64,000 nt of DNA, taken from an uncultured Clostridia bacterium (GTDB lineage: Bacteria; Bacillota; Clostridia; Oscillospirales; Ruminococcaceae). Below are positions 14,875-56,023 of the stretch, piece by piece; position 1 is the stretch's first letter, and each line of letters starts with the position of its first letter. A model generated the notes under the pieces. That model was not told the origin of the DNA, did not search any database, and saw only the letters and a list, made by a program, of their open reading frames with translations. The stretch is from the NCBI GenBank assembly GCA_944387885.1, contig CALXGR010000005.1, forward strand, positions 1,149-65,148, in the 5' to 3' direction. The translations under genes and the position numbers were made by a program.

Positions 14875-14962
14875 TGGTGCGGATGAAGGGACTTGAACCC
14901 CCACGGCTTTAAGGGCCACTAGAACCTGAATCTAGCGCGTCTGCCAATTCCGCCACATCCGC
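14875..14962 (-). tRNA. tRNA-Leu (anticodon CAG), class II with long variable arm and encoded CCA
   Basis: The reverse complement reads GCGGATGTGGCGGAATTGGCAGACGCGCTAGATTCAGGTTCTAGTGGCCCTTAAAGCCGTGGGGGTTCAAGTCCCTTCATCCGCACCA. The acceptor stem GCGGATG/CATCCGC, the anticodon stem CTAGA/TCTAG with loop TTCAGGT, and the T-loop TTCAAGT were all folded by eye. Confidence 0.9.
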
Positions 14963-37765: not shown

Positions 37766-37789
37766 TGGATTTTATCCTCCCAGTTTCAC

Positions 37790-38581
37790 TCAGCCTGCCT
37801 GAATGGCATCGTACAACCGCTGCGCAATGGCAGTCATTCCCGCATCTCCGGGATGAATGGAAACCCCCTGATGTTCAATGGCATGCTGGGTGCCGTCCAG
37901 TCCCTCCACCATGGTGCCCATTCCGGCCTTGTATTCGGGGGTGTTCAGTCCGTCCAGGCTGACCCAAATCACAGACTCGCCGTCGCAGGCTGCCTGCTTG
38001 GCAGCATCGGTTGCCTCATCCGGCCAGAAATTGCCCACCACATAAATCTTTACATCCTGCAGGCTCTGGATGTATTCCACCAGATCTTCAAAATCAGTTT
38101 GAATGGTGGCATCCTCCGCAGGGACATTTTCTCCCAGCTGGATCACCACCAGGTCATACTCATTCTTCATTTCGCTGTTCAGCAGCTGAAGTCCCTCGTG
38201 GCGGTCATGACCCATGATTTCCCACTGAGACAGCTGCGAGAGGGAGAAAGACACATCGTACTCTTTGCTCAGCATATCTGCCAGCTGGTGAACGTAATCC
38301 ATCTCCCGGCTGGAGGCAGCCATCCCCCAGTCTCCCCACCAGTAGTCACAGGTGGCGTGCTGAGTGATGGAGTTTCCTACGTACAGCACCCGCAGTTCGC
38401 CCTTGCTCTCCCCTTCCCCGCTGTAGGGAACGGTTTCATCATACTGATGGGTGTAAGGCTCCTGCTCTACCGTGTACTGAACAACCGTCTGCCGGTGAGT
38501 ATAAAGGTATACGTTTCCTCCCAGGCTGACACAGAGCATCAGTGCCAGCACTGTAATGATCCAATTTTTTCCGTTCTTCAT
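37790..38581 (-). CDS. SGNH/GDSL-family hydrolase with an N-terminal membrane anchor
   Basis: 263 aa. Block I is LYVGNSIT, with later blocks VVIQLGEN and a C-terminal HPGD-type motif. Confidence 0.7.
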   Translation of the reverse strand: MKNGKNWIITVLALMLCVSLGGNVYLYTHRQTVVQYTVEQEPYTHQYDETVPYSGEGESKGELRVLYVGNSITQHATCDYWWGDWGMAASSREMDYVHQLADMLSKEYDVSFSLSQLSQWEIMGHDRHEGLQLLNSEMKNEYDLVVIQLGENVPAEDATIQTDFEDLVEYIQSLQDVKIYVVGNFWPDEATDAAKQAACDGESVIWVSLDGLNTPEYKAGMGTMVEGLDGTQHAIEHQGVSIHPGDAGMTAIAQRLYDAIQAG

Positions 38582-39199
38582 TTATTTATGCTCCTTTACA
38601 GGCAGCCAATCCAACGAGGTATCCTCATCCACCGGCTGATACAGCTGGTCCAGATGTTCCCGGACTGTTTCAGGGTCCAGTCGGGAGAAGTCCACCTGTT
38701 CCAGCTTTTTGCATGTCTCAGGGGAAAAGCGGTACCGGATGACCTTGGCCGGAACGCCTCCCACCACTGCATAGGGGGGCACATTCCGGGAAACCACTGC
38801 CCCGGCGGCTACCACGGCCCCCTGACCGATGGTCACCCCGGACAGGATGGTCGCCCCGGCTCCCAGCCAGACATCATCCTCCACCCGGATATCCCCCTTG
38901 GAAACTCCTTCCGTGGGGGCGGTGTGGGTACACCACACCTTGAAGGGAAAGGTGCTGATCCGGTCCAGGTGATGGTCTGCCGACAGGATGAACTTGACCC
39001 CCGGTCCGATGGAACAGCAATGCCCCACCCAGAGCCGGGCATCCCGGTTGAAGGTCAGCACCTCCAGCCCGCCATAGGTCATATTCCCCACCTTGACCAG
39101 GTCCTGGTCAAATTCATTGACTATGACCGTATTGTTATGGGGATTTTTCTCCCGCCAGGCTTTCCGAAGCCGGCGAAACCGCAATTTCTCTTTCAGCAT
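38582..39199 (-). CDS. hexapeptide-repeat (left-handed beta-helix) acetyltransferase, Vat/CatB-like
   Basis: 205 aa. [23 protein letters not shown]...[53 protein letters not shown]. Confidence 0.85.
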
Positions 39200-39202
39200 A
39201 AT

Positions 39203-40333
39203 TTATCCTTTCAGGCCGTCCCGGACTGCCTCCAGGCAGCTGTACCCATACTTTTCGTCGGGTTCCAGGTAGCAGCCCTCGCCCCATTCATTCCAGGCGT
39301 TGATAAAAATAACATTGGCCTGGGAAGAACTGCGGACCTTCTTGACCAGCCGGGCAAAATATTCCCGGAATTTTTCAGGAGCCCAGTTCCGGTAGGCAAG
39401 GCCCGCCTTGTTCCGGGGGGTGTTGTCCCAGTTCACAAATGCACCCCAGAGGAATTTATCCGAGGGGAATTTCCGGCTCAGAATGGTCTTCCAGGTCTTG
39501 TCATAGTCGGGCAGTTCTAGGGTCTTTTCCTGGTGGCGGGCCTCCACCACCTTCTGGGACAATCCCTTTCCCAGAAGTTTCTTTACCAGATTTTTGGTTC
39601 TCATCCAGGGGTCGTTGGGGTCCATCCAGGTATAGGCCGGTTCAAAGGCAATATAATGGTCGCAGAAATCAGGATTGTATTCCGGAGTGTAAAGGTAAGA
39701 CGGATGCTGGAACATGATTTCCAGGCCGCCGAATCCTTCTTCCTCTCCCCGGCGGCGGAAGAAGTTCAGCATCTCTTCCAGTCGTGGAATGATTTCGGGG
39801 CGGTAGATCACCAGCACAGGCCGGCCGTCCCAGGTAATATACCGGGGGTCCCGGAAAAACCGGGCCAGGTACTGGAAATGCTTTTCCCAGTCCTCCTCTT
39901 CCCCGTAGTCCTGCTCCATAATGATTTCCTTGTTTCCTCCGTCCCACCTTCTGGCCCAGTTCTCATTGGCCCAACAGAAGCAGAAGGGAGTTTCCGCACC
40001 GGGTTCTTCCAGCATCATCTCTGCCGGTTTTTCCAGCAGCTTTTTCCCGTCCTTGAACCAGTAGTGGTAGTAACAGAATCCCCATACGCCGTACTTTTTG
40101 GCCAGGTCGGACTGCCACTGGCGGACCTGGGGATCCAGAAGGCAGTAGTAATTCTCATTGAGGGGGGTCTTGGGCTGGTAGTGCCCCTCAAAAAGGGGAA
40201 CTGCCTTTTTGGTATTGGTCCACTCTGTAAAGCCTTTGCCCCAGCTTTTATCATTTTCAGGGATGGCATGGTATTGAGGCAGGTAGAAGGCAACCACCTT
40301 TACCTGGTCCTTGTTCTGATTCAGCTCTGCCAT
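39203..40333 (-). CDS. WbsX-family glycosyl transferase/hydrolase-like polysaccharide biosynthesis protein
   Basis: 376 aa. VVAFYLPQYHAIPENDKSWGKGFTEWTNTKKA...FCYYHYWF is the hallmark N-terminus of the WbsX (PF14307-type) family. Confidence 0.75.
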   Translation of the reverse strand: MAELNQNKDQVKVVAFYLPQYHAIPENDKSWGKGFTEWTNTKKAVPLFEGHYQPKTPLNENYYCLLDPQVRQWQSDLAKKYGVWGFCYYHYWFKDGKKLLEKPAEMMLEEPGAETPFCFCWANENWARRWDGGNKEIIMEQDYGEEEDWEKHFQYLARFFRDPRYITWDGRPVLVIYRPEIIPRLEEMLNFFRRRGEEEGFGGLEIMFQHPSYLYTPEYNPDFCDHYIAFEPAYTWMDPNDPWMRTKNLVKKLLGKGLSQKVVEARHQEKTLELPDYDKTWKTILSRKFPSDKFLWGAFVNWDNTPRNKAGLAYRNWAPEKFREYFARLVKKVRSSSQANVIFINAWNEWGEGCYLEPDEKYGYSCLEAVRDGLKG

Positions 40334-41224: not shown

Positions 41225-41237
41225 AATGCTTCTCTTT

Positions 41238-42200
41238 TCAACCGCAGACCCGGGCATAGATTTTTCCAAAAGTGCCGCACCCCAGCAGGGTCAGAAGGGC
41301 TGCGATTCGATTCTTCACTCTGGTCCTGGGATTTTTGGCCACCTGCCACCGGTCCCGGCAGATCTGGTCCCAGAGGGCTTTCCGCTCTGCCTGGTATCCT
41401 TCCACTCCGGCCATCCGTCCAATCACCTGACAATAGGCGCTGAACCGGCGGCTCACCGCTGCCGGGAGGATTTGGGGATACCGCTCCTCCACAAAGGCAT
41501 ACAGTTCATCTGCGCTGGTCTTGTGGTCAAAGGCCCGGGGAGAAAAACTGCACCGCATGGTGCTTTTCTTGGTCTGGATATAACAGTAGAGCACACTGGG
41601 CCCGTATACCACTTTTTCCGCCCGGGCCAGCAGTTTATAGATGGTCCCCAGGTCCTCATAAATCCGTCCTGTGGGGAAAGGGGTCTCCTGAAGCCACCGG
41701 GTGGGATAAAGTTTGCAGCAGGGGGAGGTGGTAAAACTCCGCTGATAGAGCATGGTTTCCAAAGCCTGGGATGCAGTCATTACCTGGACTTCCCGGCTTT
41801 CCACCGGATGCCACTCCTGCCCCGGCTCACATTCCGAGAGGGTGCAGATCCCTATCTGGGCGCCGGTCTCTTCCATCAGTCCCGCCATATAGGAGATATA
41901 ATTGGGGGCCACATAGTCATCACTGTCAATGAATGCGGTGTACTCTCCCCGGGCCGCCGCCACCCCATGGTTCCGGGCAGCAGCCTGCCCCTGATTTTCC
42001 TGGTGCAACACCCGCACCCGGGAATCCCGGGCAGCATATTCATCGCAGAGAGCGCCGCTCCCGTCGGAGGAGCCATCGTCCACCAGAAGAATCTCCAGGC
42101 TGGGATAATCCTGGGCCAGAAGGCTGTTCAGGCTGGGAGCCAGATACTCTCCCACATTGTAAACCGGCACCACTACCGAAATCAAAGGCTTTTCCTTCAT
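41238..42200 (-). CDS. family 2 glycosyltransferase
   Basis: 320 aa. ISVVVPVYNVGEYL...LLVDDGSSDGS...ARNHGV...FIDSDD. Confidence 0.9.
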   Translation of the reverse strand: MKEKPLISVVVPVYNVGEYLAPSLNSLLAQDYPSLEILLVDDGSSDGSGALCDEYAARDSRVRVLHQENQGQAAARNHGVAAARGEYTAFIDSDDYVAPNYISYMAGLMEETGAQIGICTLSECEPGQEWHPVESREVQVMTASQALETMLYQRSFTTSPCCKLYPTRWLQETPFPTGRIYEDLGTIYKLLARAEKVVYGPSVLYCYIQTKKSTMRCSFSPRAFDHKTSADELYAFVEERYPQILPAAVSRRFSAYCQVIGRMAGVEGYQAERKALWDQICRDRWQVAKNPRTRVKNRIAALLTLLGCGTFGKIYARVCG

Positions 42201-42206
42201 AGGGTC

Positions 42207-43319
42207 TCAACCTTTCCTTACTTCTTGATACCACCGGGCCAGCTCTGCTGCCGCCGGGCGGATGGAAAGCCGGGGCGGCAAAGGTTTTCCCGGAGCCCTG
42301 GGCAGGGCCAGATGTTTTTCTGCCTGGTCCGCCCAGTCTTTCAGGGCCTTTTCCCCTTCCACTTTCAGCTGGCAGCCGTTGGTCTCATCCAGCACCTCGG
42401 GGGATACCTGCTCCGAGCAGATGCAGGGCAGTCCCGCAGCCCGGGCTTCCAGCGCCGCCAGACCGAATCCTTCATAAAAGCTGGGCAGACAGAACAGGTC
42501 CATGGCCCAGTAATAGGGAGCCACATTTTTCTGGACCCCGGCAAAAATCACCTGATTTTCCAGGTCCAGGGCTGCGGCTTCCTGACGGATTTTTTCTTCC
42601 AGTTCTCCTTCCCCCACCAAAAGCAGGGCGACCTGATGGCCCCGCTTTTTCAAAAGGGCGGTCAGATGAAGAAGAAAGTCATGGTTTTTGGTATATGTGA
42701 GCCGTCCCACATTTCCCAGCACCCAGGTTTCGGGGGCAATTCCCAGCTTCTGACGAAGCGCTTCCCTCTCCCGGGGCTGATACTGATAGGTTTCCTCCAA
42801 AATGGCGTTGGGAAGGATTTTCACCCGGCCTGCCTCCATATCCCGGCGGCCGAACATCCATTTTCCTGCCTGATTGCTGCAGGCAAAATAATGGGTGGCA
42901 AACCATTTGTTGAAGGGGCGGAGGATATATTTCAGAAGGGTCTTTTTCCCTTCCCCCCAGTGGGCGGTGGCGTGGTTATGACAAATCCGCACCGGCACAC
43001 CGGCCCGCCATGCGGCAAAAAGGGGGAACACCGACATGGTATTCAGGTGTGCATGGACCACGTCATACCCTTCCTCCCGGAAAGCCCTGGTCAGGACCCG
43101 CTGATACTCCCCCACATGGGTATAGGGAGGAATCAACCGGACCGGAATATTCAATTTTTCCAGTTCTTCTTTCTGGGGGAAGCTGCTGTCCCGGCAGGCA
43201 TACAGATCAAACTGTACCTGCCCGGAGGGCATATGCCGGCAATAGTTCATGACTACCGCTTCTATTCCGCCGCTGTCCATGCGGTTAAGCACCAGAGCGA
43301 CCCGGACCGGATTCGTCAT
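42207..43319 (-). CDS. family 4 (GT-B) glycosyltransferase
   Basis: Start moved to the ATG at 43319 (GGAGGAACAGGAG upstream). N-terminus VALVLNRMDSGGIE and C-terminal EGFGLAALEARAAGLP (EX7E motif). Confidence 0.88.
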   Translation of the reverse strand: MTNPVRVALVLNRMDSGGIEAVVMNYCRHMPSGQVQFDLYACRDSSFPQKEELEKLNIPVRLIPPYTHVGEYQRVLTRAFREEGYDVVHAHLNTMSVFPLFAAWRAGVPVRICHNHATAHWGEGKKTLLKYILRPFNKWFATHYFACSNQAGKWMFGRRDMEAGRVKILPNAILEETYQYQPREREALRQKLGIAPETWVLGNVGRLTYTKNHDFLLHLTALLKKRGHQVALLLVGEGELEEKIRQEAAALDLENQVIFAGVQKNVAPYYWAMDLFCLPSFYEGFGLAALEARAAGLPCICSEQVSPEVLDETNGCQLKVEGEKALKDWADQAEKHLALPRAPGKPLPPRLSIRPAAAELARWYQEVRKG

Positions 43320-43445
43320 CTCCTGTTCCTCCAAATGGTCATAATTACACACCATCCAGTATACCGCACAAGGCCTTCTTTTTCAATACTGGCAGAAAAA
43401 AGGCCGCCGCCTTTAACCAAGGCAGCGGCCTTATAATACATTTTA

Positions 43446-44977: not shown

Positions 44978-45007
44978 GAAAAGGAATTCAAGTAAGGGAG
45001 TATGACC

Positions 45008-46291
45008 ATGTATTTCACCTACTGCAACCTGCTGCTGGCAGGGCTTGGGCTGGCTACCGCCCTGTTCCTGATCACAGCCTTTTTCCGCAAAACCGGTTTG
45101 AAGGAGTTGGCTTCCTATTCATCTCCCCAGCAGATGCTCTGGGTAGACCAAGGAGCCCCGCTGCGCCGGAAATGCGGAATATTTCTCTACGCTTTGGCTC
45201 TGGTAGCTCTGCTGGCAGAAGTCACCTTTTTCAACACACAGTTCCGGCTGGTTTTCCCTGAATTTTCCGACTGGGCCAACATCCAGCTGGACCGTATCAT
45301 TTTCTGGGCCCTCATTCTCAAAACCCTTTTCTTTACCAGATACAATTTTGCCCAGCTTTTGGTCACTGATATGGTTTACTTTGCCCTGCGCTGGGTCTTT
45401 TTCAACAATCACAACCCCTGGCTGGTCTTTGCCATCTTCTTTGTCATTGCCGCCAAGGACCTGAAAATGGAAGAAATTTGTCTTCCCTACGCCCTGGCCA
45501 GCGCCCTGGGCACCGGAGTCACCATTCTTTTCTCCCTTTTTGGGGTCTGGGGGTACACGGTTCTCCAGGAACACTACAACATTACCGTCCGCCGCTGGTT
45601 TGGTTTTACCTTTCACAACACTTTAGGCGGAGTGCTGTTCGGTCTTTGCTCTGCCTGGCTTCTCTACCGGCAGGCCAAAGCCCGATGGACTGACTGGCTG
45701 GCCGTCTTTGCTGTAGGCTGCTTTACCATGTTCGGGGTGGCCAGCCGTACCGCCGGGCTCTGCATTTTCTTTTTGGTGATTGCCTCCCTCTGCGGCCGGT
45801 ATCTGGAGTTTCTCCTGAAAATGAAGCCCATCCAGGTGCTTCTTTCGGTGATTCCCCTTATCTTTGCGGCGGCCAACTTTCTGCTTCCCCGGCTTTACAG
45901 CTATACCGGGGACAACGCCCTGCTTCTGGCTCTGCCGGACAAGCTGAACAGCCTTCTCAACGGCCGCCTGTACTATGGATGGATGGCGCTCCAGAACTAC
46001 ACCACCAGCATTGCAGGGCAGCCCACCTATGGGGACTATCCGGTGGACAGCGCCTATCTCAGTTCCTGGTTCTTCTATGGTCCGGTCCTCTTTGCTCTTA
46101 TCTGGGTGGGCGCCTGCCTGGTCATCTGGCAGCTTCTTAAGCGGCAGCGGTACGCTTCCACCATGGTATTTCTGGTGGCTTGTGTCTACGCCTGGTTCGA
46201 GATTCAGTTCTTCCATGTCAGTTCCAGCCCGGCCATTCTTCTCTACACTGCCGCCCTCTATCCGGACCAGTACAATTTATCCGAAACATAA
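45008..46291 (+). CDS. polytopic membrane protein, probable Wzy-type polymerase / O-antigen-ligase-like
   Basis: About 427 aa and about 11-12 TM helices. It sits divergently next to the priming transferase in a locus that has Wzx but no other polymerase candidate. I prefer the ATG at 45008 (GGGAG 7 nt upstream). Confidence 0.6.
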   Translation: MYFTYCNLLLAGLGLATALFLITAFFRKTGLKELASYSSPQQMLWVDQGAPLRRKCGIFLYALALVALLAEVTFFNTQFRLVFPEFSDWANIQLDRIIFWALILKTLFFTRYNFAQLLVTDMVYFALRWVFFNNHNPWLVFAIFFVIAAKDLKMEEICLPYALASALGTGVTILFSLFGVWGYTVLQEHYNITVRRWFGFTFHNTLGGVLFGLCSAWLLYRQAKARWTDWLAVFAVGCFTMFGVASRTAGLCIFFLVIASLCGRYLEFLLKMKPIQVLLSVIPLIFAAANFLLPRLYSYTGDNALLLALPDKLNSLLNGRLYYGWMALQNYTTSIAGQPTYGDYPVDSAYLSSWFFYGPVLFALIWVGACLVIWQLLKRQRYASTMVFLVACVYAWFEIQFFHVSSSPAILLYTAALYPDQYNLSET

Positions 46292-46330: not shown

Positions 46331-46375
46331 CCTGTGTTATAGTAGAGTCAAATCATCTTGAAAGGAGGAGTACCC

Positions 46376-47734
46376 GTGGAGACAGAATCCACTCTTTTGG
46401 CCGCCATTCCCTCTGCCGCCCTGGCCGTTCTGGATAAGCTGGAAGCTGCAGGATACAAAGCCAACCTGGTGGGCGGCTGTGTCCGGGACCTCCTTTTGGG
46501 GACTCCTCCCCAGGACTGGGACATCTGCACCAGCGCCCGGCCCCAGGAGGTGATTGAGGTTTTCGGAAAAGACCAGGTCCGGCTCACCGGAATACGGCAG
46601 GGCACAGTCTCAGTCCGGTTGGCCGGTCAGTGGTTTGAGGTGACCACCTACCGGCTGGAAGGCGATTACCAGGACGGCAGGCACCCTTCCCGGGTATCCT
46701 TCACCGCGGATTTGGAGAAGGACCTGGCCCGGCGGGATTTCACCATCAACGCCATGGCCCTGGACCGAAAGGGCTGTCTTACCGACCCCTTTGGAGGGCA
46801 GGCGGATTTGAAAAACCAGTCACTCCGGTGCGTGGGAGACCCGGTCCTCCGGTTTCAGGAGGATGCCCTTCGGATTCTCCGGGCCCTTCGGTTCCGCTCC
46901 CGGCTGGGCTTCGAGATAGAAAAGCGGACCGCAGAAGCCATGGCCCAGGAAAAAGACCGGATGACCCTTCTCTCCGCCGAGCGGGTGGGAAGCGAAGTTC
47001 TGGGGATTCTTGCCGGGCTTTATGCCGGGGATACCCTGGACCGGTACCGGGATGTTTTTCTAGCCGCCGTTCCCCTTTTGGCTCCCACCCTGGAATGCAG
47101 CCAGAACTGTCCCTACCATTACGGCACCGTCTACCAGCACACGGTGGACGCCCTGAAACAGCTGGACTGGGAAAAGGCTGATTCAGCCACCGCCCTGGCC
47201 ATTCTTTTTCACGACATAGGAAAGCCCCAGGTCAAAACCACCGACTCCCAGGGCCGGGACCATTTTTACGACCACGCCCCTGCCGGTGCAGAGCTGACCC
47301 GTCAGGCACTCTCCGCCCTGCGGTACAGTAAAAAGCTCCAGGAAGAAGTGTGCCAGCTGGTGGCCTTTCATTCTCTCCAGGCCACCCCCTCCAAAGCCAG
47401 TGTCCGACGGCTTCTCAACAAGCTGGGGGAGGAACAGCTTCGCCGGCTGATAGAGGTGATCCGGTGCGACACCCTGGCCCACACCTCCCTGGCTCTGCCC
47501 CGCTTGCAAACTCTGGAGGAATTTTCGAAACTGCTGGAAGAGACCTTGCAGGAAAAATCCGCCTTTTCTCTGAAACAGCTGGCCGTCAACGGGAAAGACC
47601 TTACGGCTCTGGGGATTTCTCCCGGGCCCGAGATGGGAGTCATCCTCCATACTCTTTTAGAAGAGGTAATCTCGGGCAGCGAAAATGATCGGGATGCCCT
47701 TCTTGCCCGGGCCCGGCAGCTGGCCCGGAAATAA
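46376..47734 (+). CDS. cca: CCA-adding tRNA nucleotidyltransferase with an HD domain
   Basis: LVGGCVRDLLLGTPPQDWDICT, RDFTINAMA, and the HD motif LFHDIGKP. I prefer the GTG at 46376 (AAAGGAGG 7 nt upstream) over the TTG at 46358. Confidence 0.9.
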   Translation: METESTLLAAIPSAALAVLDKLEAAGYKANLVGGCVRDLLLGTPPQDWDICTSARPQEVIEVFGKDQVRLTGIRQGTVSVRLAGQWFEVTTYRLEGDYQDGRHPSRVSFTADLEKDLARRDFTINAMALDRKGCLTDPFGGQADLKNQSLRCVGDPVLRFQEDALRILRALRFRSRLGFEIEKRTAEAMAQEKDRMTLLSAERVGSEVLGILAGLYAGDTLDRYRDVFLAAVPLLAPTLECSQNCPYHYGTVYQHTVDALKQLDWEKADSATALAILFHDIGKPQVKTTDSQGRDHFYDHAPAGAELTRQALSALRYSKKLQEEVCQLVAFHSLQATPSKASVRRLLNKLGEEQLRRLIEVIRCDTLAHTSLALPRLQTLEEFSKLLEETLQEKSAFSLKQLAVNGKDLTALGISPGPEMGVILHTLLEEVISGSENDRDALLARARQLARK

Positions 47735-47771
47735 TCTTTATTTATTGGGGCCCAAGCGCCCGGGAGTTTCC

Positions 47772-48239
47772 ATGAACACTGACCTCAACATTACTTTTCG
47801 CCCCTATCAATCAAAGGACTGCGGGCAGGTTCTCCGGCTCTTTTATGACACTGTACACCGGGTCAACGCTGCCCATTACTCCCAGGAACAGCTGGATGTC
47901 TGGGCTCCCCGCTGCCCGGACCGGGACAAGTGGAACCAGTCCCTTTTGTCCCACCATTCTATTCTGGCCTTTCAGGGCGATACCCTGGCAGGGTTCGGAG
48001 ATATGGATTCCAGAGGGTACCTGGACCGACTCTATGTCCACGCCGATTATCAGGGATTGGGAATTGCCACCGCAATCTGTGATAAACTGGAGAGAACTGT
48101 CTTGGGAGATATCACGGTTCACGCCTCCATCACCGCCCGCCCCTTCTTTGAACAGAGGGGATACCAGGTCTTCAAAGAACAGCAGGTGGAGCGGCAGGGT
48201 ATTTTTCTTACCAATTATATTATGATAAAGAAAAGGTAA
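47772..48239 (+). CDS. GNAT family N-acetyltransferase
   Basis: Start moved to the ATG at 47772 (MNTDLNITFRPYQ...). The acetyl-CoA motif is LYVHADYQGLGIATAICDKLE. Confidence 0.85.
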   Translation: MNTDLNITFRPYQSKDCGQVLRLFYDTVHRVNAAHYSQEQLDVWAPRCPDRDKWNQSLLSHHSILAFQGDTLAGFGDMDSRGYLDRLYVHADYQGLGIATAICDKLERTVLGDITVHASITARPFFEQRGYQVFKEQQVERQGIFLTNYIMIKKR

Positions 48240-48273: not shown

Positions 48274-48312
48274 AAAAAAGCAGCCGTTCTTCCTGGAACG
48301 ACTGCTTTTTTT
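48274..48312. terminator. bidirectional terminator between the GNAT gene and the convergent BASS transporter gene
   Basis: GCAGCCGTTC/GAACGACTGC stem with an A-run before it and TTTTTTT after it. A second hairpin (48314-48343) follows. Confidence 0.75.
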
Positions 48313-48380: not shown

Positions 48381-49364
48381 TTATTTCGTCTTTGCAGCGG
48401 CCTTCTTCTCGGCAGCAGCGGCCATCAGGTTGGCCACAATGGAGCCGGAGATGTTATGCCACACGCTGAACAGAGCACCGGGGACGGTGGCCAGGGCCAG
48501 GTCGGGGAATACGGTGCCCGCCAGGCTGGTGGCCAGACCGCTGTTCTGCATACCCACCTCGATGGAGACGGCATTGCACTTGGCATCGCTCATGTGCAGC
48601 AGCTTGCCCACCCCGTAACCCAGGGCATAGCCCATCAGGTTATGCAGGATAACTACAGAGAGGATCAGCAGGCCGTTGGCAAACAGTTTCTCGGCGTTGG
48701 GGGCCACCACAGCGCCCACAATGGTCACAATGGCCACCACCGAAATCAGGGGCAAGATCTCCACCACGGCCTGGGTGAATTTTCCGAACAGTTTATTGAT
48801 GATGAAGCCCAATACAATGGGGATGATAACGATTTTCACAATGCTCATGAACATGTCCATCATGTTGACGGTGACTGTCTCATGGGCATACAGATAGGTC
48901 AGCGCCGGGGTGAGGAAGGGAGCCAGCACAGTGGAGCAGGCAGTCATGCCCACGCTCAGGGCCACATCCCCCTTTGCCAGGAAGGTCATAACATTGGAGG
49001 AAGTGCCTCCCGGGCAGGTTCCTACCAGAATGACGCCTACTGCCAGTTCAGGGCTCAGGTTAAAAATCTTGGTGAGAAGAAATGCCAGCAGAGGCATAAT
49101 GACGAACTGGGATGCACAGCCCACCAGCACATCCTTGGGCCGGGAGAAAACGATTTTGAAGTCCTCCAGCTTCAGGGTCAGGCCCATGCCGAACATAACC
49201 ACCATGAGCAGGTTGTTCACCGTGACCAGGCGGGTAAAGAGGTTATAGTCCTTGCCCACCCACAAAAAGCTTTCCGGCACAAAGAAAGCCAGCACAGCAA
49301 CAATAAGCACAATAATCGCCATGTAACGCCCCGCAAATTTACTTACCTTTTTTAGTACTTCCAT
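48381..49364 (-). CDS. bile acid:sodium symporter (BASS/SBF) family transporter
   Basis: Start moved to the ATG at 49364 (GGAAGGAG 8 nt upstream); the upstream part of the track ORF is the T-box leader. Family motifs are FGMGLTLKLEDF, GTCPGGTSSNVMTFLAKGD and EVGMQNSGLA. Confidence 0.88.
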   Translation of the reverse strand: MEVLKKVSKFAGRYMAIIVLIVAVLAFFVPESFLWVGKDYNLFTRLVTVNNLLMVVMFGMGLTLKLEDFKIVFSRPKDVLVGCASQFVIMPLLAFLLTKIFNLSPELAVGVILVGTCPGGTSSNVMTFLAKGDVALSVGMTACSTVLAPFLTPALTYLYAHETVTVNMMDMFMSIVKIVIIPIVLGFIINKLFGKFTQAVVEILPLISVVAIVTIVGAVVAPNAEKLFANGLLILSVVILHNLMGYALGYGVGKLLHMSDAKCNAVSIEVGMQNSGLATSLAGTVFPDLALATVPGALFSVWHNISGSIVANLMAAAAEKKAAAKTK

Positions 49365-49429
49365 AAGAAATGCTCCTTCCACAAATCTATTCTGAAACCG
49401 GCCCTGCGGGGGTGCGGTGTCAGTCAAAT

Positions 49430-49745
49430 AAAAAAGACCTTTGCCTCCTGTAAGAGACAAAGGTCTATAACGACACTCTGCGGTACCACTCTTATTGCCC
49501 GGATTTTTCCGGACCACTCTGACTCCGCACAAAGGCTTTCACCTGACGGAGCGGCAGGATAACGGCTGCCAGCCGGCACAGCTTACTTGAGTTCCCGGAC
49601 GGGAACGGTTAGGCCTGCTGCTCGGAGGGGATTTTTCTCCGTGAGTTCATCCCTGTCTCGCACCAACCGACAGTTCTCTGTGACAAATCTTCCCGGATAC
49701 TTGGACCTCGTCAACGCTTTACCGTGATAAATCATTTAAGTATAG
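49430..49745 (-). promoter_or_regulatory. T-box riboswitch leader (tRNA-sensing transcription attenuator) controlling the BASS transporter
   Basis: The minus-strand RNA carries every canonical element. K-turn: GCGUUGACGAGG (49717-49706) with CCUCCGAGC (49628-49620). S-turn: AGUA/GAA. AG bulge: AGAGA (49679-49675). Distal loop: GGUUGGUGCGA (49668-49658). F-box: CCGUUA (49565-49560). Stem III is present. T-box: AAUAAGAGUGGUACCGCA (core 49490-49478). Antiterminator pairing: UAAGAG (49494-49489) with CUCUUA (49456-49451). Terminator plus U6: 49466-49430. Confidence 0.85.
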
Positions 49746-49749
49746 ACAC

Positions 49750-49777
49750 ATTATACCCCTTCTTCCGAAAAAGTCAA
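49750..49777 (-). promoter_or_regulatory. sigma-A-like promoter of the T-box leader (TTGACT-16-TATAAT)
   Basis: -35 at 49777-49772 and -10 at 49755-49750 on the minus strand. Confidence 0.6.
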
Positions 49778-50039: not shown

Positions 50040-50951
50040 ATGAAGCTGGATCGGCTGATAGGCATTCTTTCCATTCTGCTTCAGCGGGAACAGGTCACAG
50101 CGCCGGAACTGGCGGAGCAGTTTGAGGTCTCTCGCCGCACCATCCAGCGGGATATTGATTCCCTCTGTCGGGCGGGGATTCCCATTGTCACCTCCCAGGG
50201 TTCCGGCGGGGGGATCTCCATTCCGGATGGATACCGGGTGGACCGGACCCTCCTCACCGCCCCGGAAATGCAGGCGATTCTGGCCGGGCTTCGCAGTCTG
50301 GACAGCGTCAGCGGCACCAAGCGGTATGCCCAGCTTATGGAGAAGCTATCCGCCGGGAACAGCAGCCTGCTGGCTGGGAATGCCCAGATGCTCATTGACC
50401 TTTCCTCCTGGTACAAGACCAGCCTGGCCCCCAAAATCGAAATCATACAGAGCGCCATCCAGCAGCACAGTATGGTTCGTTTCACCTATCATTCCCCCAA
50501 GGGAACCCTGACAAGGATGGCCGAACCTTATTATCTGGTGTTTCGGTGGTCCTCCTGGTATTTGTGGGGCTGGTGCCGTTCTCGTCAGGACTTTCGTCTC
50601 TTTAAGCTCAACCGAATGACCGACCTTGCCCCGGGAGAAACTTTTTCGCCCCGTCCGTCTCCCCTGCCTGACCTGACTCCCCAACGGATTTTCCCTGCAA
50701 ATTACCGGGTCACTGTCCTTTTTGACCCGTCCTGTTCCTGGCGGCTGGTGGAGGAGTACGGTGCAGACAGTTTCACCCCTCAGCCGGACGGCAGGCTGCT
50801 CTTTCGCTGGGGTTTTCCCGACAAAGAAAGTGTCATCAGCTGGATCCTCACCTTCGGAGACAGCGCTGAATTACTTGAGCCTGCCCAGCTCCGGACTGAA
50901 CTGGGGGACCTTATCCGACGAATGGCAGAACAGTATAAGGAACGGAGGTAA
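50040..50951 (+). CDS. YafY-family transcriptional regulator (HTH plus WYL domain plus C-terminal WCX-like domain)
   Basis: 303 aa. HTH reads LSILLQREQVTAPELAEQFEVSRRTIQRDIDSLCRAGIPI. The WYL domain reads VRFTYHSPKGTLTRMAEPYYLVFRWSSWYLWGWC...FRLFKLNRM. Confidence 0.88.
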   Translation: MKLDRLIGILSILLQREQVTAPELAEQFEVSRRTIQRDIDSLCRAGIPIVTSQGSGGGISIPDGYRVDRTLLTAPEMQAILAGLRSLDSVSGTKRYAQLMEKLSAGNSSLLAGNAQMLIDLSSWYKTSLAPKIEIIQSAIQQHSMVRFTYHSPKGTLTRMAEPYYLVFRWSSWYLWGWCRSRQDFRLFKLNRMTDLAPGETFSPRPSPLPDLTPQRIFPANYRVTVLFDPSCSWRLVEEYGADSFTPQPDGRLLFRWGFPDKESVISWILTFGDSAELLEPAQLRTELGDLIRRMAEQYKERR

Positions 50952-50953
50952 TC

Positions 50954-51268
50954 ATGGCTTCTCATCCTGATTTTGTGGAATATGTGACAGAGCAGCTGCG
51001 TGGTGCCGGGCATATCCGGGCCCGCAAAATGTTCGGAGAATACGGTCTTTACTGCGATGGTATCTTTTTCGGGGTCATCTGTGATGACCAGTTGTTTATT
51101 AAAATCACGCCCCAGGGAGAAGCCGCCTTCCCGCATCTGCCCAAGGCTCCGCCCTACGAAGGGGCAAGAGATTCCTTTCTGGTGGAGGAAGTGGATGACC
51201 CCGCCGCTGCCGTCCAATTGACCCGAATTACCTGTCAGTCCCTGGCAGCTCAAAAACGGAGGAAATGA
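50954..51268 (+). CDS. TfoX N-terminal domain protein
   Basis: 104 aa. FVEYVTEQL...RARKMFGEYGLYCDGIFFGVICDDQLFIK is the TfoX_N pattern. Confidence 0.75.
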   Translation: MASHPDFVEYVTEQLRGAGHIRARKMFGEYGLYCDGIFFGVICDDQLFIKITPQGEAAFPHLPKAPPYEGARDSFLVEEVDDPAAAVQLTRITCQSLAAQKRRK

Positions 51269-51270
51269 TC

Positions 51271-51912
51271 ATGGCATTCGATTACAAGAAAGAATACAAG
51301 GAATTTTATCTGCCGCCCAGAACTCCCGGAATCGTCAAAGTCCCCGCCATGAACTTTCTGGCAGTGCGGGGACAGGGCGACCCCAACCAGGAAGAGGGCG
51401 CCTATAAACAGGCCATCGGCCTTTTGTATGGGGTAGCCTACACCATCAAAATGAGCAAGATGGGCAGCCACAAAATGAAGGGCTATTTTGATTTTGTAGT
51501 CCCCCCTTTGGAGGGGCTTTGGTGGCAGGAAGGGGTTCAGGGGGTAGACTATGCCCGGAAAGAGGACTTCTCCTGGATTTCTCTCATACGGCTGCCCGAC
51601 TTTGTCACCAAAGCAGAATTTGATTGGGCAGTACCGGAAGCCTCCCGGAAAAAAGGTCTGGACTGCTCCCCGGTAGAGTTTTTTACCTGGGAGGAAGGGC
51701 TCTGCGTTCAGTGCATGCACATAGGCCCCTACGATACGGAGCCTGCCACCGTGGCTGCCATGGAGGAGTATGCCAAATCCCAGGGTTATCTGGAGGATTT
51801 TGGAGAGAGCCGTTTCCACCATGAAATTTATTTGAGTGATGTCCGCCGGTGCAAACCCGAAAGTTTGAAAACAGTAATACGCCACCCGGTGCGAAAGGCA
51901 GGTCAGCCATGA
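51271..51912 (+). CDS. GyrI-like small-molecule-binding domain protein
   Basis: About 213 aa. FDYKKEYKEFYLPPRTPGIVKVPAMNFLAVRGQGDPN...PLEGLWW...HHEIYLSD is typical of the GyrI-like/SbmC-fold family. I prefer the ATG at 51271 (GGAGG 8 nt upstream). Confidence 0.75.
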   Translation: MAFDYKKEYKEFYLPPRTPGIVKVPAMNFLAVRGQGDPNQEEGAYKQAIGLLYGVAYTIKMSKMGSHKMKGYFDFVVPPLEGLWWQEGVQGVDYARKEDFSWISLIRLPDFVTKAEFDWAVPEASRKKGLDCSPVEFFTWEEGLCVQCMHIGPYDTEPATVAAMEEYAKSQGYLEDFGESRFHHEIYLSDVRRCKPESLKTVIRHPVRKAGQP

Positions 51913-52448
51913 AAGGATTCACAAGGGAATACACCCAGTTCAGTCTCTGCGGCCTGAACTGCCTGCTCTGCCCCATGCAGGTGGGCGGTTACTGCCCCGG
52001 CTGCGGCGGCGGACCCGGCAACCAGAGCTGCGCCATTGCCCGGTGTTCCCTGGACCGGGGCGGGTACGCCTTTTGCAGCCAATGTCCCTCCTACCCCTGC
52101 TCCCGATATGAGGATTTTGACAGCGGGGACTCCTTTGTTCCCCACAGCCGTCGGGCAGCCGACCTGGCCCGGGCCGGAGAAGCGGGATTGGATTTTTACC
52201 TTTCCGAACTGCGAACCAAGCGGGAGATTTTGGACAAGCTGCTGGCCCACTATAATGACGGCCGCCGTAAGACGCTCTACTGTGCTGCAGTGTATCTGCT
52301 CCCTCTGGAGGATTTGCAAACCGCAATGGCCGAACTGGAAAGCCGGCAGGAACTTTCCCTGAAGGAGCGTGCTGCGGCTGCGGCAGAACTCCTGCAAGCG
52401 GCAGCTGACAGCCGGGGCATCAGTCTCAAACTGAACAAGAAAAAGTGA
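51909..52448 (+). CDS. DUF3795-type cysteine-rich protein
   Basis: Start at the ATG at 51909, overlapping the upstream stop (ATGA). Cys pattern is CGLNCLLCP...GYCPGCGGG...CAIARC...CSQCPSYPCSRY. Confidence 0.75.
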   Translation: MKGFTREYTQFSLCGLNCLLCPMQVGGYCPGCGGGPGNQSCAIARCSLDRGGYAFCSQCPSYPCSRYEDFDSGDSFVPHSRRAADLARAGEAGLDFYLSELRTKREILDKLLAHYNDGRRKTLYCAAVYLLPLEDLQTAMAELESRQELSLKERAAAAAELLQAAADSRGISLKLNKKK

Positions 52449-52474
52449 AAGTCTGTACAAAAGGAGTTTTTCCC

Positions 52475-52909
52475 ATGCCAACCGTTTTGATCGATGCCGA
52501 CGGCTGCCCGGTGGTGGACCTGACCATCCGGATCTGCCGCAGCCGCCAGATTCCCGTCCTGATTCTCTGCGACACTGCCCACCAGATTCAGCGGGATGGC
52601 GCCCAGACCCTGGTATTTGACAAAGGCGCCGACAGTGTTGACTTTGCCCTGGTCAACCGGGTCTGCCCCGGAGATATTGTGGTCACCCAGGACTACGGCC
52701 TGGCCAGCATGTGCCTGGCCCGCCGGGCCCGGGTCCTGAATCAGAACGGCCTGGAGTACACCGGGGAAAACATTGATTTTCTTCTGGTCCGCCGCCATGA
52801 AAACAAAAAACTTCTCCGGAGCGGAAAACATCCCAAAGGACCTGCCAAGCGCACCCGGGAACAGGATAACGCTTTCGCCCAGACACTGGAAAAAATGCTG
52901 ACCCCTTAA
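52475..52909 (+). CDS. YaiI/YqxD family protein (UPF0178/DUF188)
   Basis: Start moved to the ATG at 52475 (AAGGAG upstream). VLIDADGCPV...ADSVDFALVNRVCPGDIVVTQDYGLASMCLARRARVLNQNG. Confidence 0.8.
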   Translation: MPTVLIDADGCPVVDLTIRICRSRQIPVLILCDTAHQIQRDGAQTLVFDKGADSVDFALVNRVCPGDIVVTQDYGLASMCLARRARVLNQNGLEYTGENIDFLLVRRHENKKLLRSGKHPKGPAKRTREQDNAFAQTLEKMLTP

Positions 52910-52921
52910 GGAGGAAACACC

Positions 52922-53632
52922 ATGTTCAAAAACAAAGTTGCCGTCGTCACCGGTGGTGCGAAAGGCATCGGAAAGGCCATTGCACAGGAATTCCGAAAAG
53001 CCGGAGCCGCCGTATACATCATCGACCTTCTGCCCAACGACTGCTTTACCGGGGACATTGCCGACCCGGCAGTATTGGAAGCCTTTTCCCGGAAGGTGAT
53101 TGAGGAGCAGGGCCATGTAGATTATCTGGTCAACAATGCCCTCCCTCTTATGAAGGGCATCGACGATTGCAGCTGGGAGGAATTCAACTACGCTCTGCAG
53201 GTGGGAGTGGCTGCACCTTTCTATCTGACCAAGCTATTTGCTCCCTATTTTGCACCGGGTGCTGCCATTGTGAACATCTCTTCCTCCCGGGACCGGATGA
53301 GCCAGCCCCAGACCGAGAGCTACACAGCCGCAAAGGGCGGCATCTCCGCCCTGACCCACGCCCTGGCGGTAAGTCTGGCGGGAAAGGTCCGGGTGAATAG
53401 TATCTCCCCCGGCTGGATCGAAACCGGAGACTCTGTCTGGACCGGCCCGGATGCTGCCCAGCACCCTGCAGGCCGGGTGGGCAATCCCCAGGACATTGCC
53501 CAGATGGCCCTGTTCCTCTGCTCGGACAAGGCCGGGTTCATCACCGGTGAAAATATCTGCATAGACGGCGGCATGACCCGGCAGATGATTTACCACAATG
53601 ACTATGGATGGAATTTACAGGATAATCCCTGA
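52922..53632 (+). CDS. short-chain dehydrogenase/reductase (SDR) family oxidoreductase
   Basis: 236 aa. Cofactor motif VVTGGAKGIGKAI, NNA, and catalytic YTAAKGG (YxxxK). Confidence 0.9.
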   Translation: MFKNKVAVVTGGAKGIGKAIAQEFRKAGAAVYIIDLLPNDCFTGDIADPAVLEAFSRKVIEEQGHVDYLVNNALPLMKGIDDCSWEEFNYALQVGVAAPFYLTKLFAPYFAPGAAIVNISSSRDRMSQPQTESYTAAKGGISALTHALAVSLAGKVRVNSISPGWIETGDSVWTGPDAAQHPAGRVGNPQDIAQMALFLCSDKAGFITGENICIDGGMTRQMIYHNDYGWNLQDNP

Positions 53633-53635
53633 CAG

Positions 53636-53676
53636 AAGAAGGACCGGAGAGGCTTCTCTCCGGTCCTTCTTTTCTT
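53636..53676. terminator. bidirectional terminator between the SDR gene and the convergent ECF/ABC operon
   Basis: 14-bp stem GAAGGACCGGAGAG/CTCTCCGGTCCTTC with loop GCTT, followed by TTTTCTTT. Confidence 0.85.
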
Positions 53677-54878
53677 TATAAAAGTTCTTTCCTCTTTGTT
53701 TTTCGGCAGGCGGCAATGCAAAGCACTGCGCTGACCGTCACAAAAATCAGTATTGCCGCCAGTTCGGTCCCCTTTGGCAGCCACAGGCTGACACTCTTTC
53801 GGAAATAAAAAGGCCAGTCCAGCAGCCAGCTTCCAAACAGGGAACCAGCCCCCACAAAAAGCGGCAATGCTTTCAGGAGCATGGCAATGTAGTTGCCGCT
53901 GTACTGGGAGAGGAAGAGGGTCATTCCCGCCGCCCCCAGGGAGAGAGCCAGAATCAGCCCCACGAGTACCACAAGATATTCCCCATAGGTCCAGTCGAAC
54001 CAGAAGTCAAACCCAAAATCAATTCCCGGCAGGCGGCACTGGGCAAAGTGAAGGGCTCCCTTTCTCAAAAAGGGGATTGCATAGGCTGTCAGGTTTACCA
54101 GTGTAAGGATAAGGGCAGAAATCAGCCCCGCCCACATTTGCACCGGTAAAGTGGCTCTGCCCCGCCGGGAACTCCATTGCATGGCTTTGGTCCGGTGCAG
54201 GCTGTCCCGCACCAGAGTGGGAGAGAGAAGAATCACCACAGACAGAACGCTCCATACTCCCAGGTCCATGGTGTAATCCCGTGTGTTCTGTCGGACGGTC
54301 TCAGGCATCAGTCCCCAGGCATTTTCCGGCTGGTTCAGCTGCCGGGTCCGCTCAATCACGGCCTGAGGGGCCCCGTCCTCTATCCGGCTCTCCACCAGCA
54401 GGGCGCCCTGTTCGGCACTTTCATCATAGAGCCTCATAATGTCCGTCAGGTACTCAATCCCATACCAGTTGGAGCCGTTATAGATTCGATGACTTAGCCT
54501 TTCCAGTTCCATATCTGCCTGGCTGTCCTGGGCCAGCGCCTCTTCATAATAGGACTGCATAAAAGCATCAAAACTGTCGTAGTCGGTCAGATTCAGCGCT
54601 GCGGCTTCCGGAATCCGGGCAAGAACCGCCTGAAACTGTTCCTTCTCCTCTTCCAGCCAGCCGTCCAGCTCCGTCCGCTCCTCCGGCTCCAGGGTGGGGC
54701 CGTACCATTCCACCAGTTCCCAGGCTGCCCGGTATCCATCCTCCCCAATACCGTTATAGCCGAAAGTCTGGATATCAAAAAGCGGAAACATCCAGTAATA
54801 CATCAGCCCCAAAACCAGCAGAGCGGCCAGAATGACCGGATTCCAGATTTTCCGCATCTCCCATTTCAGCAGGTTCAT
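53676..54878 (-). CDS. ABC-2-type permease-like membrane protein with a large extracytoplasmic loop after TM1
   Basis: Start moved to the ATG at 54878 (MNLLKWEMRKIW...), which overlaps the upstream stop as ATGA. TM1 is followed by a soluble loop of about 200 aa and then about 5 TM helices. Confidence 0.65.
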   Translation of the reverse strand: MNLLKWEMRKIWNPVILAALLVLGLMYYWMFPLFDIQTFGYNGIGEDGYRAAWELVEWYGPTLEPEERTELDGWLEEEKEQFQAVLARIPEAAALNLTDYDSFDAFMQSYYEEALAQDSQADMELERLSHRIYNGSNWYGIEYLTDIMRLYDESAEQGALLVESRIEDGAPQAVIERTRQLNQPENAWGLMPETVRQNTRDYTMDLGVWSVLSVVILLSPTLVRDSLHRTKAMQWSSRRGRATLPVQMWAGLISALILTLVNLTAYAIPFLRKGALHFAQCRLPGIDFGFDFWFDWTYGEYLVVLVGLILALSLGAAGMTLFLSQYSGNYIAMLLKALPLFVGAGSLFGSWLLDWPFYFRKSVSLWLPKGTELAAILIFVTVSAVLCIAACRKTKRKELL

Positions 54879-56023
54879 GCTGCCACATCCTTTCTTGAAA
54901 AGCGCTTCAAAGCCCCGGCAGTCCCTGCCTCCAGCACCAGAAGGTTGAATATCACCGTCACCGTTTCCTGCCAGGGAAGGACGGCACTGCTTCCCAGTTC
55001 TGTAAACCAGGCGTTGGAGCAGAGCCAGACTGCGGGCAGCTGAAACAGGGCCAGGTCGTAAGCCACCCATAAATGCATTTCGCCCAGCACGGAAGCCGCC
55101 ATCAGCCCTCCTACACAGAACCCGCCCAAGGCCAGGGCCGCCAGGTAGGGGTTAGGGCATAAGGTTCCGCAAAGGGCGGCCAGAAGGGTGAATCCTGCCG
55201 TCAGGAAAATGCCCAGAACCAGCACTGCTCCCAGATACTGCCCCACCGTGAAATCTCCCCAGGTGATAAAGGGCCGGGAGAAAAGCAGGTCGGTGAGATA
55301 ATTGAACTGACTGGAAACGCTGGCCTGCCATATTCCCCGGTAATCCATCCGGAGGAAGTAGACGGCCAGGGCAGGCAGAGCGGCCAAGGCAAACAAAACC
55401 GGAACCGCCAGCAGGGCCGCCCTCACCTTAATCCTGAGAAGTTTTCGCCCGGTATGGGTGGTATAAAGGGTATCGGCGGTCCTGTGAATTCTCTCGTACC
55501 CCATAAGATAGAGAGTCCCCAGCATGGCTGCCACTGCCGCCTGTGCCAGGATGGAGCGGATCATGGTTCCAAACAAGAACTGGTGGACTTCCTGAGTCAC
55601 CGGACCGGCATACAAATCCATGGCCGCATCTTTTTGGGCCAGCTGCTCCACCCTTTTGGACAAAAGGTCGTATTTCCAGCCCGCCCAGGAAGCTGCCAGG
55701 GGGGAGCTTCCCATCACCGACTGATAAAACGTCTTGAGGTCGTCGGTGTCATAGGTTTCAAAGATGTCCTCCATTCCTTCCGCCGTTGCCCATATCAGTT
55801 CTTTGTTGGGGTCAGCGGGCAGATTTTCCAGCCGTTCCATAAAATCAGCATCCACCCGCTGTCCCAACTGGGCGGTGCAGGCGGAGATTCCATTGAAAAT
55901 ACTCCGCTGATTTTCAGACTGGCCAAAGATAAATCCCAGGTTGAGAAGAAATCCGAGAGCCAGGAATCCCCACAAGGCGGGCAGGGAGAACAGCTTTTTC
56001 CACTCCCAGAAAATCAGCCTCAT
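54875..56023 (-). CDS. ABC-2-type permease-like membrane protein
   Basis: 382 aa. The architecture is the same: TM1, then a loop of about 140 aa, then about 5 TM helices. The start is 2 nt after the ATPase stop. Confidence 0.65.
   Translation of the reverse strand: MRLIFWEWKKLFSLPALWGFLALGFLLNLGFIFGQSENQRSIFNGISACTAQLGQRVDADFMERLENLPADPNKELIWATAEGMEDIFETYDTDDLKTFYQSVMGSSPLAASWAGWKYDLLSKRVEQLAQKDAAMDLYAGPVTQEVHQFLFGTMIRSILAQAAVAAMLGTLYLMGYERIHRTADTLYTTHTGRKLLRIKVRAALLAVPVLFALAALPALAVYFLRMDYRGIWQASVSSQFNYLTDLLFSRPFITWGDFTVGQYLGAVLVLGIFLTAGFTLLAALCGTLCPNPYLAALALGGFCVGGLMAASVLGEMHLWVAYDLALFQLPAVWLCSNAWFTELGSSAVLPWQETVTVIFNLLVLEAGTAGALKRFSRKDVAA

Follow-up and report, generated by a model that had tools for sequence, protein, structure and literature searches.

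A BASS-family transporter gene of Clostridia lies behind a T-box leader that very probably responds to isoleucine tRNA

Introduction

T-box leaders of the isoleucine (Ile) class, such as those of ileS and of the ilv-leu operons in Bacillus and Clostridium, carry a full Stem I, Stem II, a IIA/B region with an F-box, Stem III, an antiterminator with a bulge of 7 nucleotides (nt), UGGUACC, and a competing intrinsic terminator, and their specifier codon AUC is followed by one loop nucleotide. The locus described here lies on the minus strand of a 64-kb stretch of DNA from an uncultured Clostridia bacterium (contig CALXGR010000005.1; the whole stretch of 64,000 nt is called the window) and has the same elements; its target differs, however, being a gene for a transporter of the BASS family (bile acid:sodium symporters, SBF in Pfam), which in relatives is found either alone or after ilvD. 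The window leader also has a specifier loop 1 nt longer than that of most orthologues, and the base after its codon is C, not a purine.

Catalogues of T-box-regulated transporters list the ABC, APC, LIVCS, MFS, NhaC, NSS and DAACS families (Wels 2008, PMC2494555; Sun 2013, PMC3766115), and the second of them names 29 transporter orthologues (PMC3766115). BASS is absent from both regulon catalogues (PMC2494555, PMC3766115), and in the full-text literature we found no description of a T-box associated with bile acid, symporter or BASS; the association appears to be new, a prior bare listing elsewhere, for instance in TBDB, being possible. The T-box-regulated BrnQ/LIVCS and BcaP are likewise secondary transporters, induced by uncharged branched-chain tRNA and relieving a shortage of Ile, but they belong to an unrelated fold and family and move amino acids themselves, whereas for the window clade a pathway intermediate is the likelier cargo.

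To our knowledge, the physiological substrates of bacterial BASS proteins are mostly unknown, PanS with pantoate being the only case that rests on experiments. ASBT_NM of Neisseria meningitidis (3ZUX, 3ZUY, 8OYF) and PanS of Salmonella have the same two Na+ sites and the same hydroxy-carboxylate site at the cross-over helices as the window protein, which can therefore be expected to carry a small alpha-hydroxy acid by Na+-coupled elevator symport. In contrast to these proteins, the window protein lies under a predicted tRNA-Ile sensor, its clade is linked to ilvD and not to pan genes, and the cargo predicted for it, a branched acid of the 2,3-dihydroxy type, differs from pantoate, a 2,4-dihydroxy acid. 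Judging from sequence, we consider it likely that the gene encodes an Ile-starvation-induced, Na+-coupled importer of an isoleucine precursor.

Results

A full-length T-box leader precedes the BASS gene

An earlier interpretation of the window, made from its letters and open reading frames (ORFs) and here called the sequence-only reading, had proposed a canonical transcriptional T-box in control of a BASS transporter, and both halves of this proposal held, with a full-length match to RF00230 in the leader and a match to PF01758 in the protein. The transcription unit comprises the following features, all on the minus strand; alignments to the Rfam covariance model (CM) are named where they define a feature.

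49750-49777: sigma-70-type promoter, TTGACT-16-TATAAT, 11 of 12 consensus positions
49450-49723: T-box leader, full length, RF00230
49620-49717: Stem I with K-turn, specifier loop, AGAGA bulge and GGUUGGUGCGA distal loop, from the CM alignment
49451-49494: antiterminator, UAAGAG (49494-49489) paired with CUCUUA (49456-49451), from the CM alignment, folding and RNAalifold
49429-49466: intrinsic terminator and U-run, with a 14-bp stem (49466-49435) that overlaps the 3' strand of the antiterminator
49373-49380: ribosome-binding site, GGAAGGAG, 9 nt before the ATG at 49364
48381-49364: BASS/SBF-family Na+-coupled transporter gene, 327 amino acids, monocistronic, PF01758

A cmscan search of Rfam gave RF00230 at 95.6 bits with E 1e-19, above the gathering score of 93 and covering model positions 1-219 of 219, and every Stem I and downstream motif that had been claimed is present in the CM alignment. 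Stem I has the K-turn GC-GUU-GA ... GA-GC, and its specifier loop forms an S-turn made up of 5'-side AGUA and 3'-side GAA. Stem II with an AGUA of its own, the F-box CCGUUA, Stem III and the T-box sequence AAUAAGAGUGGUACCGCA follow on the 3' side of Stem I, and the conserved T-box sequence AAGAGUGGUACCGCAGAG is found in the window leader. When Stem I was folded alone by minimum free energy (MFE), the canonical fold was not recovered (z +1.6), as expected for non-canonical motifs; its structure was taken from the CM alignment and from covariation in RNAalifold, which recovered the Stem I helices with compensatory changes, and not from MFE folding. The promoter stands where it had been placed, and an orthologue whose protein is 95% identical (locus L091) keeps it as TTGACA ... 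TATAAT.

Downstream, the antiterminator has a second helix, GCAGAG/CUUUGU, and a 7-nt bulge, UGGUACC, with UGGU at 49488-49485. Its folding energy is -13.4 kcal/mol, while the terminator folds at -25.1 kcal/mol (z -3.8; 0 of 200 shuffles as stable). Since both structures use the strand CUUUGUCUCUU, they are mutually exclusive, as the sequence-only reading had it. Such a layout is usual for T-boxes, in which the antiterminator prevails only with help from the acceptor end of the tRNA. The leader RNA is an ordinary representative of RF00230 and, very probably, of the Ile class; we regard it as a class-I transcriptional T-box.

The leader is conserved in front of orthologous transporters

BASS homologues were collected from GTDB genomes (80 loci, spanning Firmicutes, Bacteroidota, Spirochaetota and other phyla) and from further assemblies fetched individually. 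The same leader lies 5' of orthologous BASS genes in 19 independent Clostridia lineages. A full-length RF00230 match directly 5' of the orthologue or its operon was obtained at 17 loci (L001, L002, L006, L009, L012, L016, L018, L019, L020 and L024, and likewise L081, L085, L088, L094, L096, L098 and L100), with scores of 93.4-137 bits, all at or above the gathering score; at L029 the T-box core is truncated by the contig end. Among the loci surveyed, T-boxes are confined to those of the Clostridia type with at least 63% identity to the query. RNAalifold on 11 leaders recovered Stem I, Stem III and the bulged antiterminator, with compensatory changes at 28 of 49 pairs, and UGGU is invariant across all orthologous leaders. 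Both the retention of the leader 5' of orthologues and these compensatory changes indicate more than a chance match.

Some BASS genes that are 63-66% identical to the Clostridia type come from bins labelled Prevotella, Bacteroidaceae, Duodenibacillus, Bacteroides and Alistipes (L003, L008, L014, L029, L035), and L029, labelled 'Bacteroides', has its T-box core at the contig start; this suggests mis-binned contigs or horizontal transfer. Other Rfam elements occur near BASS homologues that lack a T-box, namely opposite-strand FMN riboswitches at two Treponema loci (L010, 896-1019, minus; L011, 602-725, minus), a downstream glycine riboswitch in an Erysipelotrichaceae locus (L032, 4151-4243, plus), a group II intron fragment (L004, 4415-4665, minus) and a DUF3800-XI RNA (L028, 1756-1806, minus). 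None of these five elements is placed so as to control BASS.

Comparative alignment places the specifier at AUC

The specifier assignment rests on the following feature:

49630-49632, minus strand: very probable specifier codon AUC (Ile), invariant in 19 lineages and adjoining a covarying helix

In the window, the 3' side of the specifier loop, GAAAAAUCC, has 9 nt, GAA(49637-49635)-AA-AUC-C(49629), and is followed by the helix strand CCUC (49628-49625); the letters are those of the sequence-only reading, which had divided them as GAA-AAA-UCC. From the window sequence alone AAA, AAU, AUC and UCC are all conceivable specifiers, and the register, undecidable from a single sequence, was settled by comparative alignment. 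All lineages have a loop of the form GAA-N(1-2)-AUC-N (N = A or C) followed by the helix, and this lower helix covaries among them (GAGG/CCUC, GGGG/CCCC, AAGG/CCUU, GAGA/UCUC), which fixes the register. AUC occupies positions 2-4 counted from the 3' end of the loop, and the flanking loop positions vary. Positions 2-4 are the '+0' frame of TBDB, where AUC makes up 99% of Ile specifiers (PMC7778990).

From this alignment, the specifier is very probably AUC and the T-box specific for Ile. The register that the sequence-only reading had listed first, AAA (Lys), was rejected, the triplet after GAA varying as AAA, AUA, CAA, CAU, AAU, UAU and GAU across the 19 lineages; its alternative AUC (Ile) is the invariant one, and its third option, UCC (Ser), did not hold. 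AAU (Asn) was also rejected; AUC beside the lower helix is invariant. The expectation that leader and specifier would be conserved together in orthologues is borne out by AUC in all 19 Clostridia lineages. Bacterial tRNA-Ile has the discriminator A73, which pairs with the U of UGGU, and the comparison is in line with the earlier deduction that UGGU calls for a tRNA with A73, which would suit Lys or Ile and speak against Ser or Asn.

The transporter belongs to the PanS/ASBT_NM branch

The product of the gene matches PF01758 (SBF) in Pfam with E 8e-52 and 176.1 bits, against a gathering score of 24.3. The start at ATG 49364 agrees with the N-termini of homologues; a longer ORF with a TTG start reaches into the leader and does not represent the gene. 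The neighbours of BASS in the window are unrelated to it (a convergent GNAT gene, a CCA-adding enzyme, a divergent HTH-WYL-WCX regulator, TfoX_N and GyrI-like genes, and exopolysaccharide genes), so that leader and transporter form an autonomous monocistronic unit.

The closest solved relative is ASBT_NM (3ZUY, 8OYF), with 51% identity over the full length and E 3e-88. All Na1/Na2 residues, Q77, S114, N115, S128, T132, E260, V261, M263 and Q264 in ASBT_NM numbering, are identical in the window protein. Pantoate, but neither ketopantoate nor pantothenate, binds to ASBT_NM (Becker et al. 2023, PMC10645422), through the main-chain NH groups of T112, A113 and G267 and the side chains of N265, H294 and N295, while I203 and I47 lie close by, and Asn265 of ASBT_NM disfavours a 2-keto group (PMC10645422). 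In the window protein the contacts T112, N265, G267, H294, N295 and I203 are kept, including all side-chain contacts, and the pocket differs by A113S, I47V and F15M.

The best NCBIfam match is the PanS equivalog NF047939, at 287.9 bits and below its cutoff of 400, and the TIGR00841 'bass' subfamily model, at 277.7 bits, is also below its cutoff (326.3). With a score under the NF047939 cutoff, the protein was not filed as PanS. Neither the window nor the T-box clade shows an association with pantothenate or coenzyme A (CoA) genes. The reading as a bile-acid transporter was rejected as well. Human NTCP and ASBT are only remotely similar (E about 1e-25), and even ASBT_NM is not believed to have bile acids as its physiological cargo (PMC10645422). 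The window protein is, by its family matches, a BASS member of the PanS/ASBT_NM branch and not a PanS equivalog, and it is predicted to be an elevator-type transporter with 10 transmembrane helices and two Na+ sites.

ilvD is the recurrent operon partner

In seven lineages the T-box is followed by a two-gene operon, ilvD and then BASS (L001, L081, L085, L088, L094, L096, L098). The ilvD products have 552-561 amino acids, and BASS starts 22-59 nt later. The identities of their transporters to the window protein are:

Gemmiger sp. An50 (L001): 82%
Allofournierella (L081): 84%
Pygmaiobacter (L085): 81%
L088: 79%
L094: 77%
L096 and L098: 70-72%

The upstream gene encodes a dihydroxy-acid dehydratase (PF00920 and PF24877), and the three copies checked in NCBIfam (L001, L085, L088) score about 800 bits against the TIGR00110 equivalog cutoff of 618. 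In L001 and L085 the T-box is preceded by a promoter with 12 of 12 matches, ilvD and BASS are not separated by a terminator, and BASS is followed by a strong one. The pairs occur in at least five different flanking contexts; since the flanking genes vary between lineages, it is the ilvD-BASS pair itself that is conserved. No ilvE, ilvA, ilvB or ilvC was present as operon partner at the ilvD-BASS loci examined. A tblastn search with IlvD over the window and the 80 loci placed ilvD beside BASS only in L001, and the linkage became clear after relatives of 70-84% identity had been fetched individually. At other loci (L091, L100, and loci of Lachnospiraceae, Hungatella, Clostridium and Faecalibacterium) the Ile T-box drives the transporter alone, which argues that the transporter itself, and not just ilvD, has been selected for control by Ile-tRNA.

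A parallel within the family comes from homologues without a T-box. In L073 (panC 1646-2485), L075 (658-1497) and L077 (1646-2485), panC, the gene for pantoate-beta-alanine ligase, lies 4 nt upstream of a BASS gene whose product is about 50% identical to the window protein, and the panC of L073 matches PF02569 with E 1e-112. Among 52 genes directly next to non-T-box homologues that were surveyed with Pfam, panC (3 loci) was the only recurrent partner, and no ilv or bile-acid genes were found. These panC-BASS pairs, in Blautia and Lachnospiraceae, are likely pantoate-salvage pairs. They have the same family and logic as the T-box clade, a transporter adjoining the enzyme that consumes the imported hydroxy acid, but differ in their lack of a T-box, in identity and in a CoA-pathway rather than an Ile-pathway partner.

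In L096 (425-7072; also in L097, L098 and L099), the T-box-ilvD-BASS cassette lies together with a serine recombinase inside a split spoIVA. The large serine recombinase of L096 has 549 amino acids (PF00239, PF07508, PF13408), and spoIVA is divided there into an N-terminal part of 413 codons (PF09547, PF20438) and a separate SpoIVA_C ORF of 91 codons. The junctions in L096 have similar cores, TACACATGATATG and TACATATGATGG, and joined they would read ...APSIHMMAANITTEV... This looks like a skin-like intervening element of roughly 5.1 kb that splits spoIVA and carries metabolic cargo.

Other features around the locus

Beyond the 3' end of BASS lies one further feature:

48274-48305, either strand: bidirectional terminator-like hairpin GCAGUCGUUCC...GGAACGGCUGC, flanked by A- and T-runs, found by inspection of the sequence

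In the plus orientation the hairpin was flagged by a terminator scan (48285-48300); the minus orientation was recognised by inspection and is not listed by the scan. It is terminator-like for both the BASS transcript and the convergent GNAT gene, on the BASS side by inspection. A CCA-adding enzyme/poly(A) polymerase-family ORF with an HD domain (46358-47734, plus) overlaps the GNAT acetyltransferase ORF (47685-48239) by 50 nt as the two are listed; both ORFs converge on BASS and have the hairpin in common with it. Divergent from the T-box promoter (50040-51912, plus) are an HTH-WYL-WCX regulator (PafC-like) and then TfoX_N and GyrI-like small-molecule-binding genes, together perhaps a small operon with a role in regulation or stress. 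Five ORFs of 279-799 amino acids gave no match in Pfam at a cutoff of E 1e-5 (41226-43433, 45002-46291, 52277-53116, 53676-55070 and 37121-39520); some adjoin sugar-transferase or glycosyltransferase genes and could be part of an exopolysaccharide locus.

Discussion

Taken together, the leader and the protein point to the following sequence of events. Transcription would start at the TTGACT/TATAAT promoter, and Stem I would dock tRNA-Ile(GAU) through the specifier AUC (49632-49630) and through the platform of distal loop and AG bulge. If the tRNA is uncharged, its free NCCA end, with A73, would pair with UGGU in the antiterminator bulge; this pairing would stabilise the antiterminator, the weaker structure (-13 kcal/mol), against the terminator (-25 kcal/mol) and let RNA polymerase enter the BASS gene. 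Charged tRNA-Ile would make no contact with UGGU, and transcription would halt at the U-run. Under limitation for Ile the transporter would thus be made and would import an Ile precursor with Na+; if this is a dihydroxy acid, IlvD and a transaminase could convert it into Ile. The tRNA-Ile dependence, the direction of transport and the identity of the substrate are what we infer from sequence.

Import of an Ile precursor is favoured because the transporter would be on only under isoleucine limitation, and we regard uptake of a pathway precursor rather than of the amino acid as probable. For the precursor itself our best guess, a tentative one, is (2R,3R)-2,3-dihydroxy-3-methylvalerate, the substrate of IlvD, with 2,3-dihydroxyisovalerate probably carried too. 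The dihydroxy acid is favoured because the sole recurrent operon partner is IlvD, because of the parallel with PanC, and because ASBT_NM prefers alpha-hydroxy over alpha-keto acids; with an alpha-hydroxy-acid site kept and IlvD the constant partner, we prefer a 2,3-dihydroxy acid to a 2-keto acid or the amino acid itself. Pantoate and 2,3-dihydroxy-3-methylvalerate are constitutional isomers (C6H12O4) and both alpha-hydroxy acids. The sequence-only reading had suggested uptake of an amino acid or of a precursor such as a keto acid: its precursor part is supported through the ilvD-BASS operons, while keto acid and amino acid are less favoured than the 2,3-dihydroxy acid. Dihydroxyisovalerate is known to accumulate outside engineered yeast cells (PMC5678825). 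It is conceivable, if doubtful, that the transporter of the T-box clade and IlvD are a compact, horizontally mobile module for dihydroxy-acid salvage, by which gut Clostridia would make isoleucine from dihydroxy acids leaked by their neighbours.

Several observations weigh against this interpretation. The window T-box exceeds the gathering threshold by only 2.6 bits, and the leader of L091, colinear with it and intact in a pairwise alignment, falls below the gathering score; this pair of leaders simply scores close to the RF00230 threshold. The base after AUC is C, not the usual purine, in eight lineages. No tRNA-Ile gene was found in the 64-kb window, where the sole tRNA is tRNA-Leu(CAG) (14875-14962, minus), so the match of anticodon and discriminator rests on general knowledge of tRNA-Ile. 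By tblastn with IlvD, there is no ilvD within the window either; the link to ilvD is therefore by homology to relatives only, and BASS stands alone in the window and in 11 other lineages. Finally, when binding-site columns of the T-box, panC and other clades were compared, A113S, I47V and F15M were not exclusive to the T-box clade; the pocket is near-identical family-wide, panC-linked homologues included, and thus dihydroxy acid and pantoate are not discriminated by sequence.

Among the other explanations, the one that survives best, although we hold it to be unlikely, accepts the Ile T-box and assigns the transporter isoleucine, 2-keto-3-methylvalerate or another 2-oxo or 2-hydroxy acid (2-oxobutanoate, pyruvate, 2-hydroxy-3-methylvalerate), with ilvD merely co-regulated. 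The 12 lineages in which the gene occurs without ilvD are in its favour, and plant BASS proteins are also carriers of 2-keto acids. T-box-regulated transporters described so far carry amino acids (PMC2494555, PMC3766115), and plant BASS proteins carry pyruvate and glycolate (PMC10645422). However, an imported keto acid or Ile would bypass IlvD, the sole recurrent partner, and the Asn265 that disfavours a 2-keto group in ASBT_NM is conserved. As regards Ile itself, we know of no BASS member that transports an alpha-amino acid.

We judge it improbable that the gene encodes an ordinary PanS-type importer of pantoate or ketopantoate for CoA, the Ile T-box reflecting competition for 2-ketoisovalerate or being incidental. 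Such a role would suit the best NCBIfam match, the 51% identity to the pantoate-binding ASBT_NM with its conserved side-chain contacts, and the presence of panC-linked homologues within the same family; yet 287.9 bits is well under the equivalog cutoff of 400, the clade with panC linkage has no T-boxes and an identity of only about 50%, and an Ile-tRNA sensor across 19 lineages together with ilvD in the operon would be unexpected for a vitamin-precursor importer.

A serine T-box, read in the +1 frame as UCC in the window and UCA or UCC in orthologues, is very improbable. The base after AUC is always A or C, and these Ser codons are accordingly 'conserved' as well; UGGU, however, would need a wobble with the G73 generally known from bacterial tRNA-Ser. 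UCC is the commonest Ser specifier in TBDB, but UCA, which would be required in 11 lineages, makes up only 6% of them (PMC7778990). Moreover, the +1 frame leaves zero loop nucleotides between codon and helix and the invariant preceding A (19 of 19 lineages) unexplained, and the linkage to ilvD indicates Ile. Least credible is a lysine T-box with AAA directly after GAA and a transporter for lysine or a lysine precursor, since, although the window loop can be read GAA-AAA-UCC and UGGU is compatible with the A73 generally known from tRNA-Lys, the triplet after GAA is not conserved and has changed to AUA even in L091, with its 95%-identical protein, relatives have ilvD and not a lysine gene in the operon, and AAA lies outside the -1, +0 and +1 frames that TBDB counts from the 3' end of the loop (PMC7778990).

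The reading that we prefer, an importer of an isoleucine precursor made under Ile starvation, rests on a riboswitch that is itself routine. The tRNA-Ile sensor and the recurrent ilvD-BASS operon tie a large clade of transporters, common in gut Clostridia, to isoleucine supply, and the conserved module of Ile T-box, ilvD and BASS offers a testable handle on the substrates of bacterial 'bile-acid' symporters. If the reading with a dihydroxy acid as cargo is true, the automatic annotation 'bile acid:sodium symporter' would be corrected, and bacterial BASS proteins would gain a new class of physiological substrate. The T-box regulon would then extend past synthetases, biosynthetic enzymes and amino-acid carriers to what is apparently its first member importing a pathway intermediate, and salvage of intermediates would be added to the routes by which gut anaerobes meet their demand for branched-chain amino acids.

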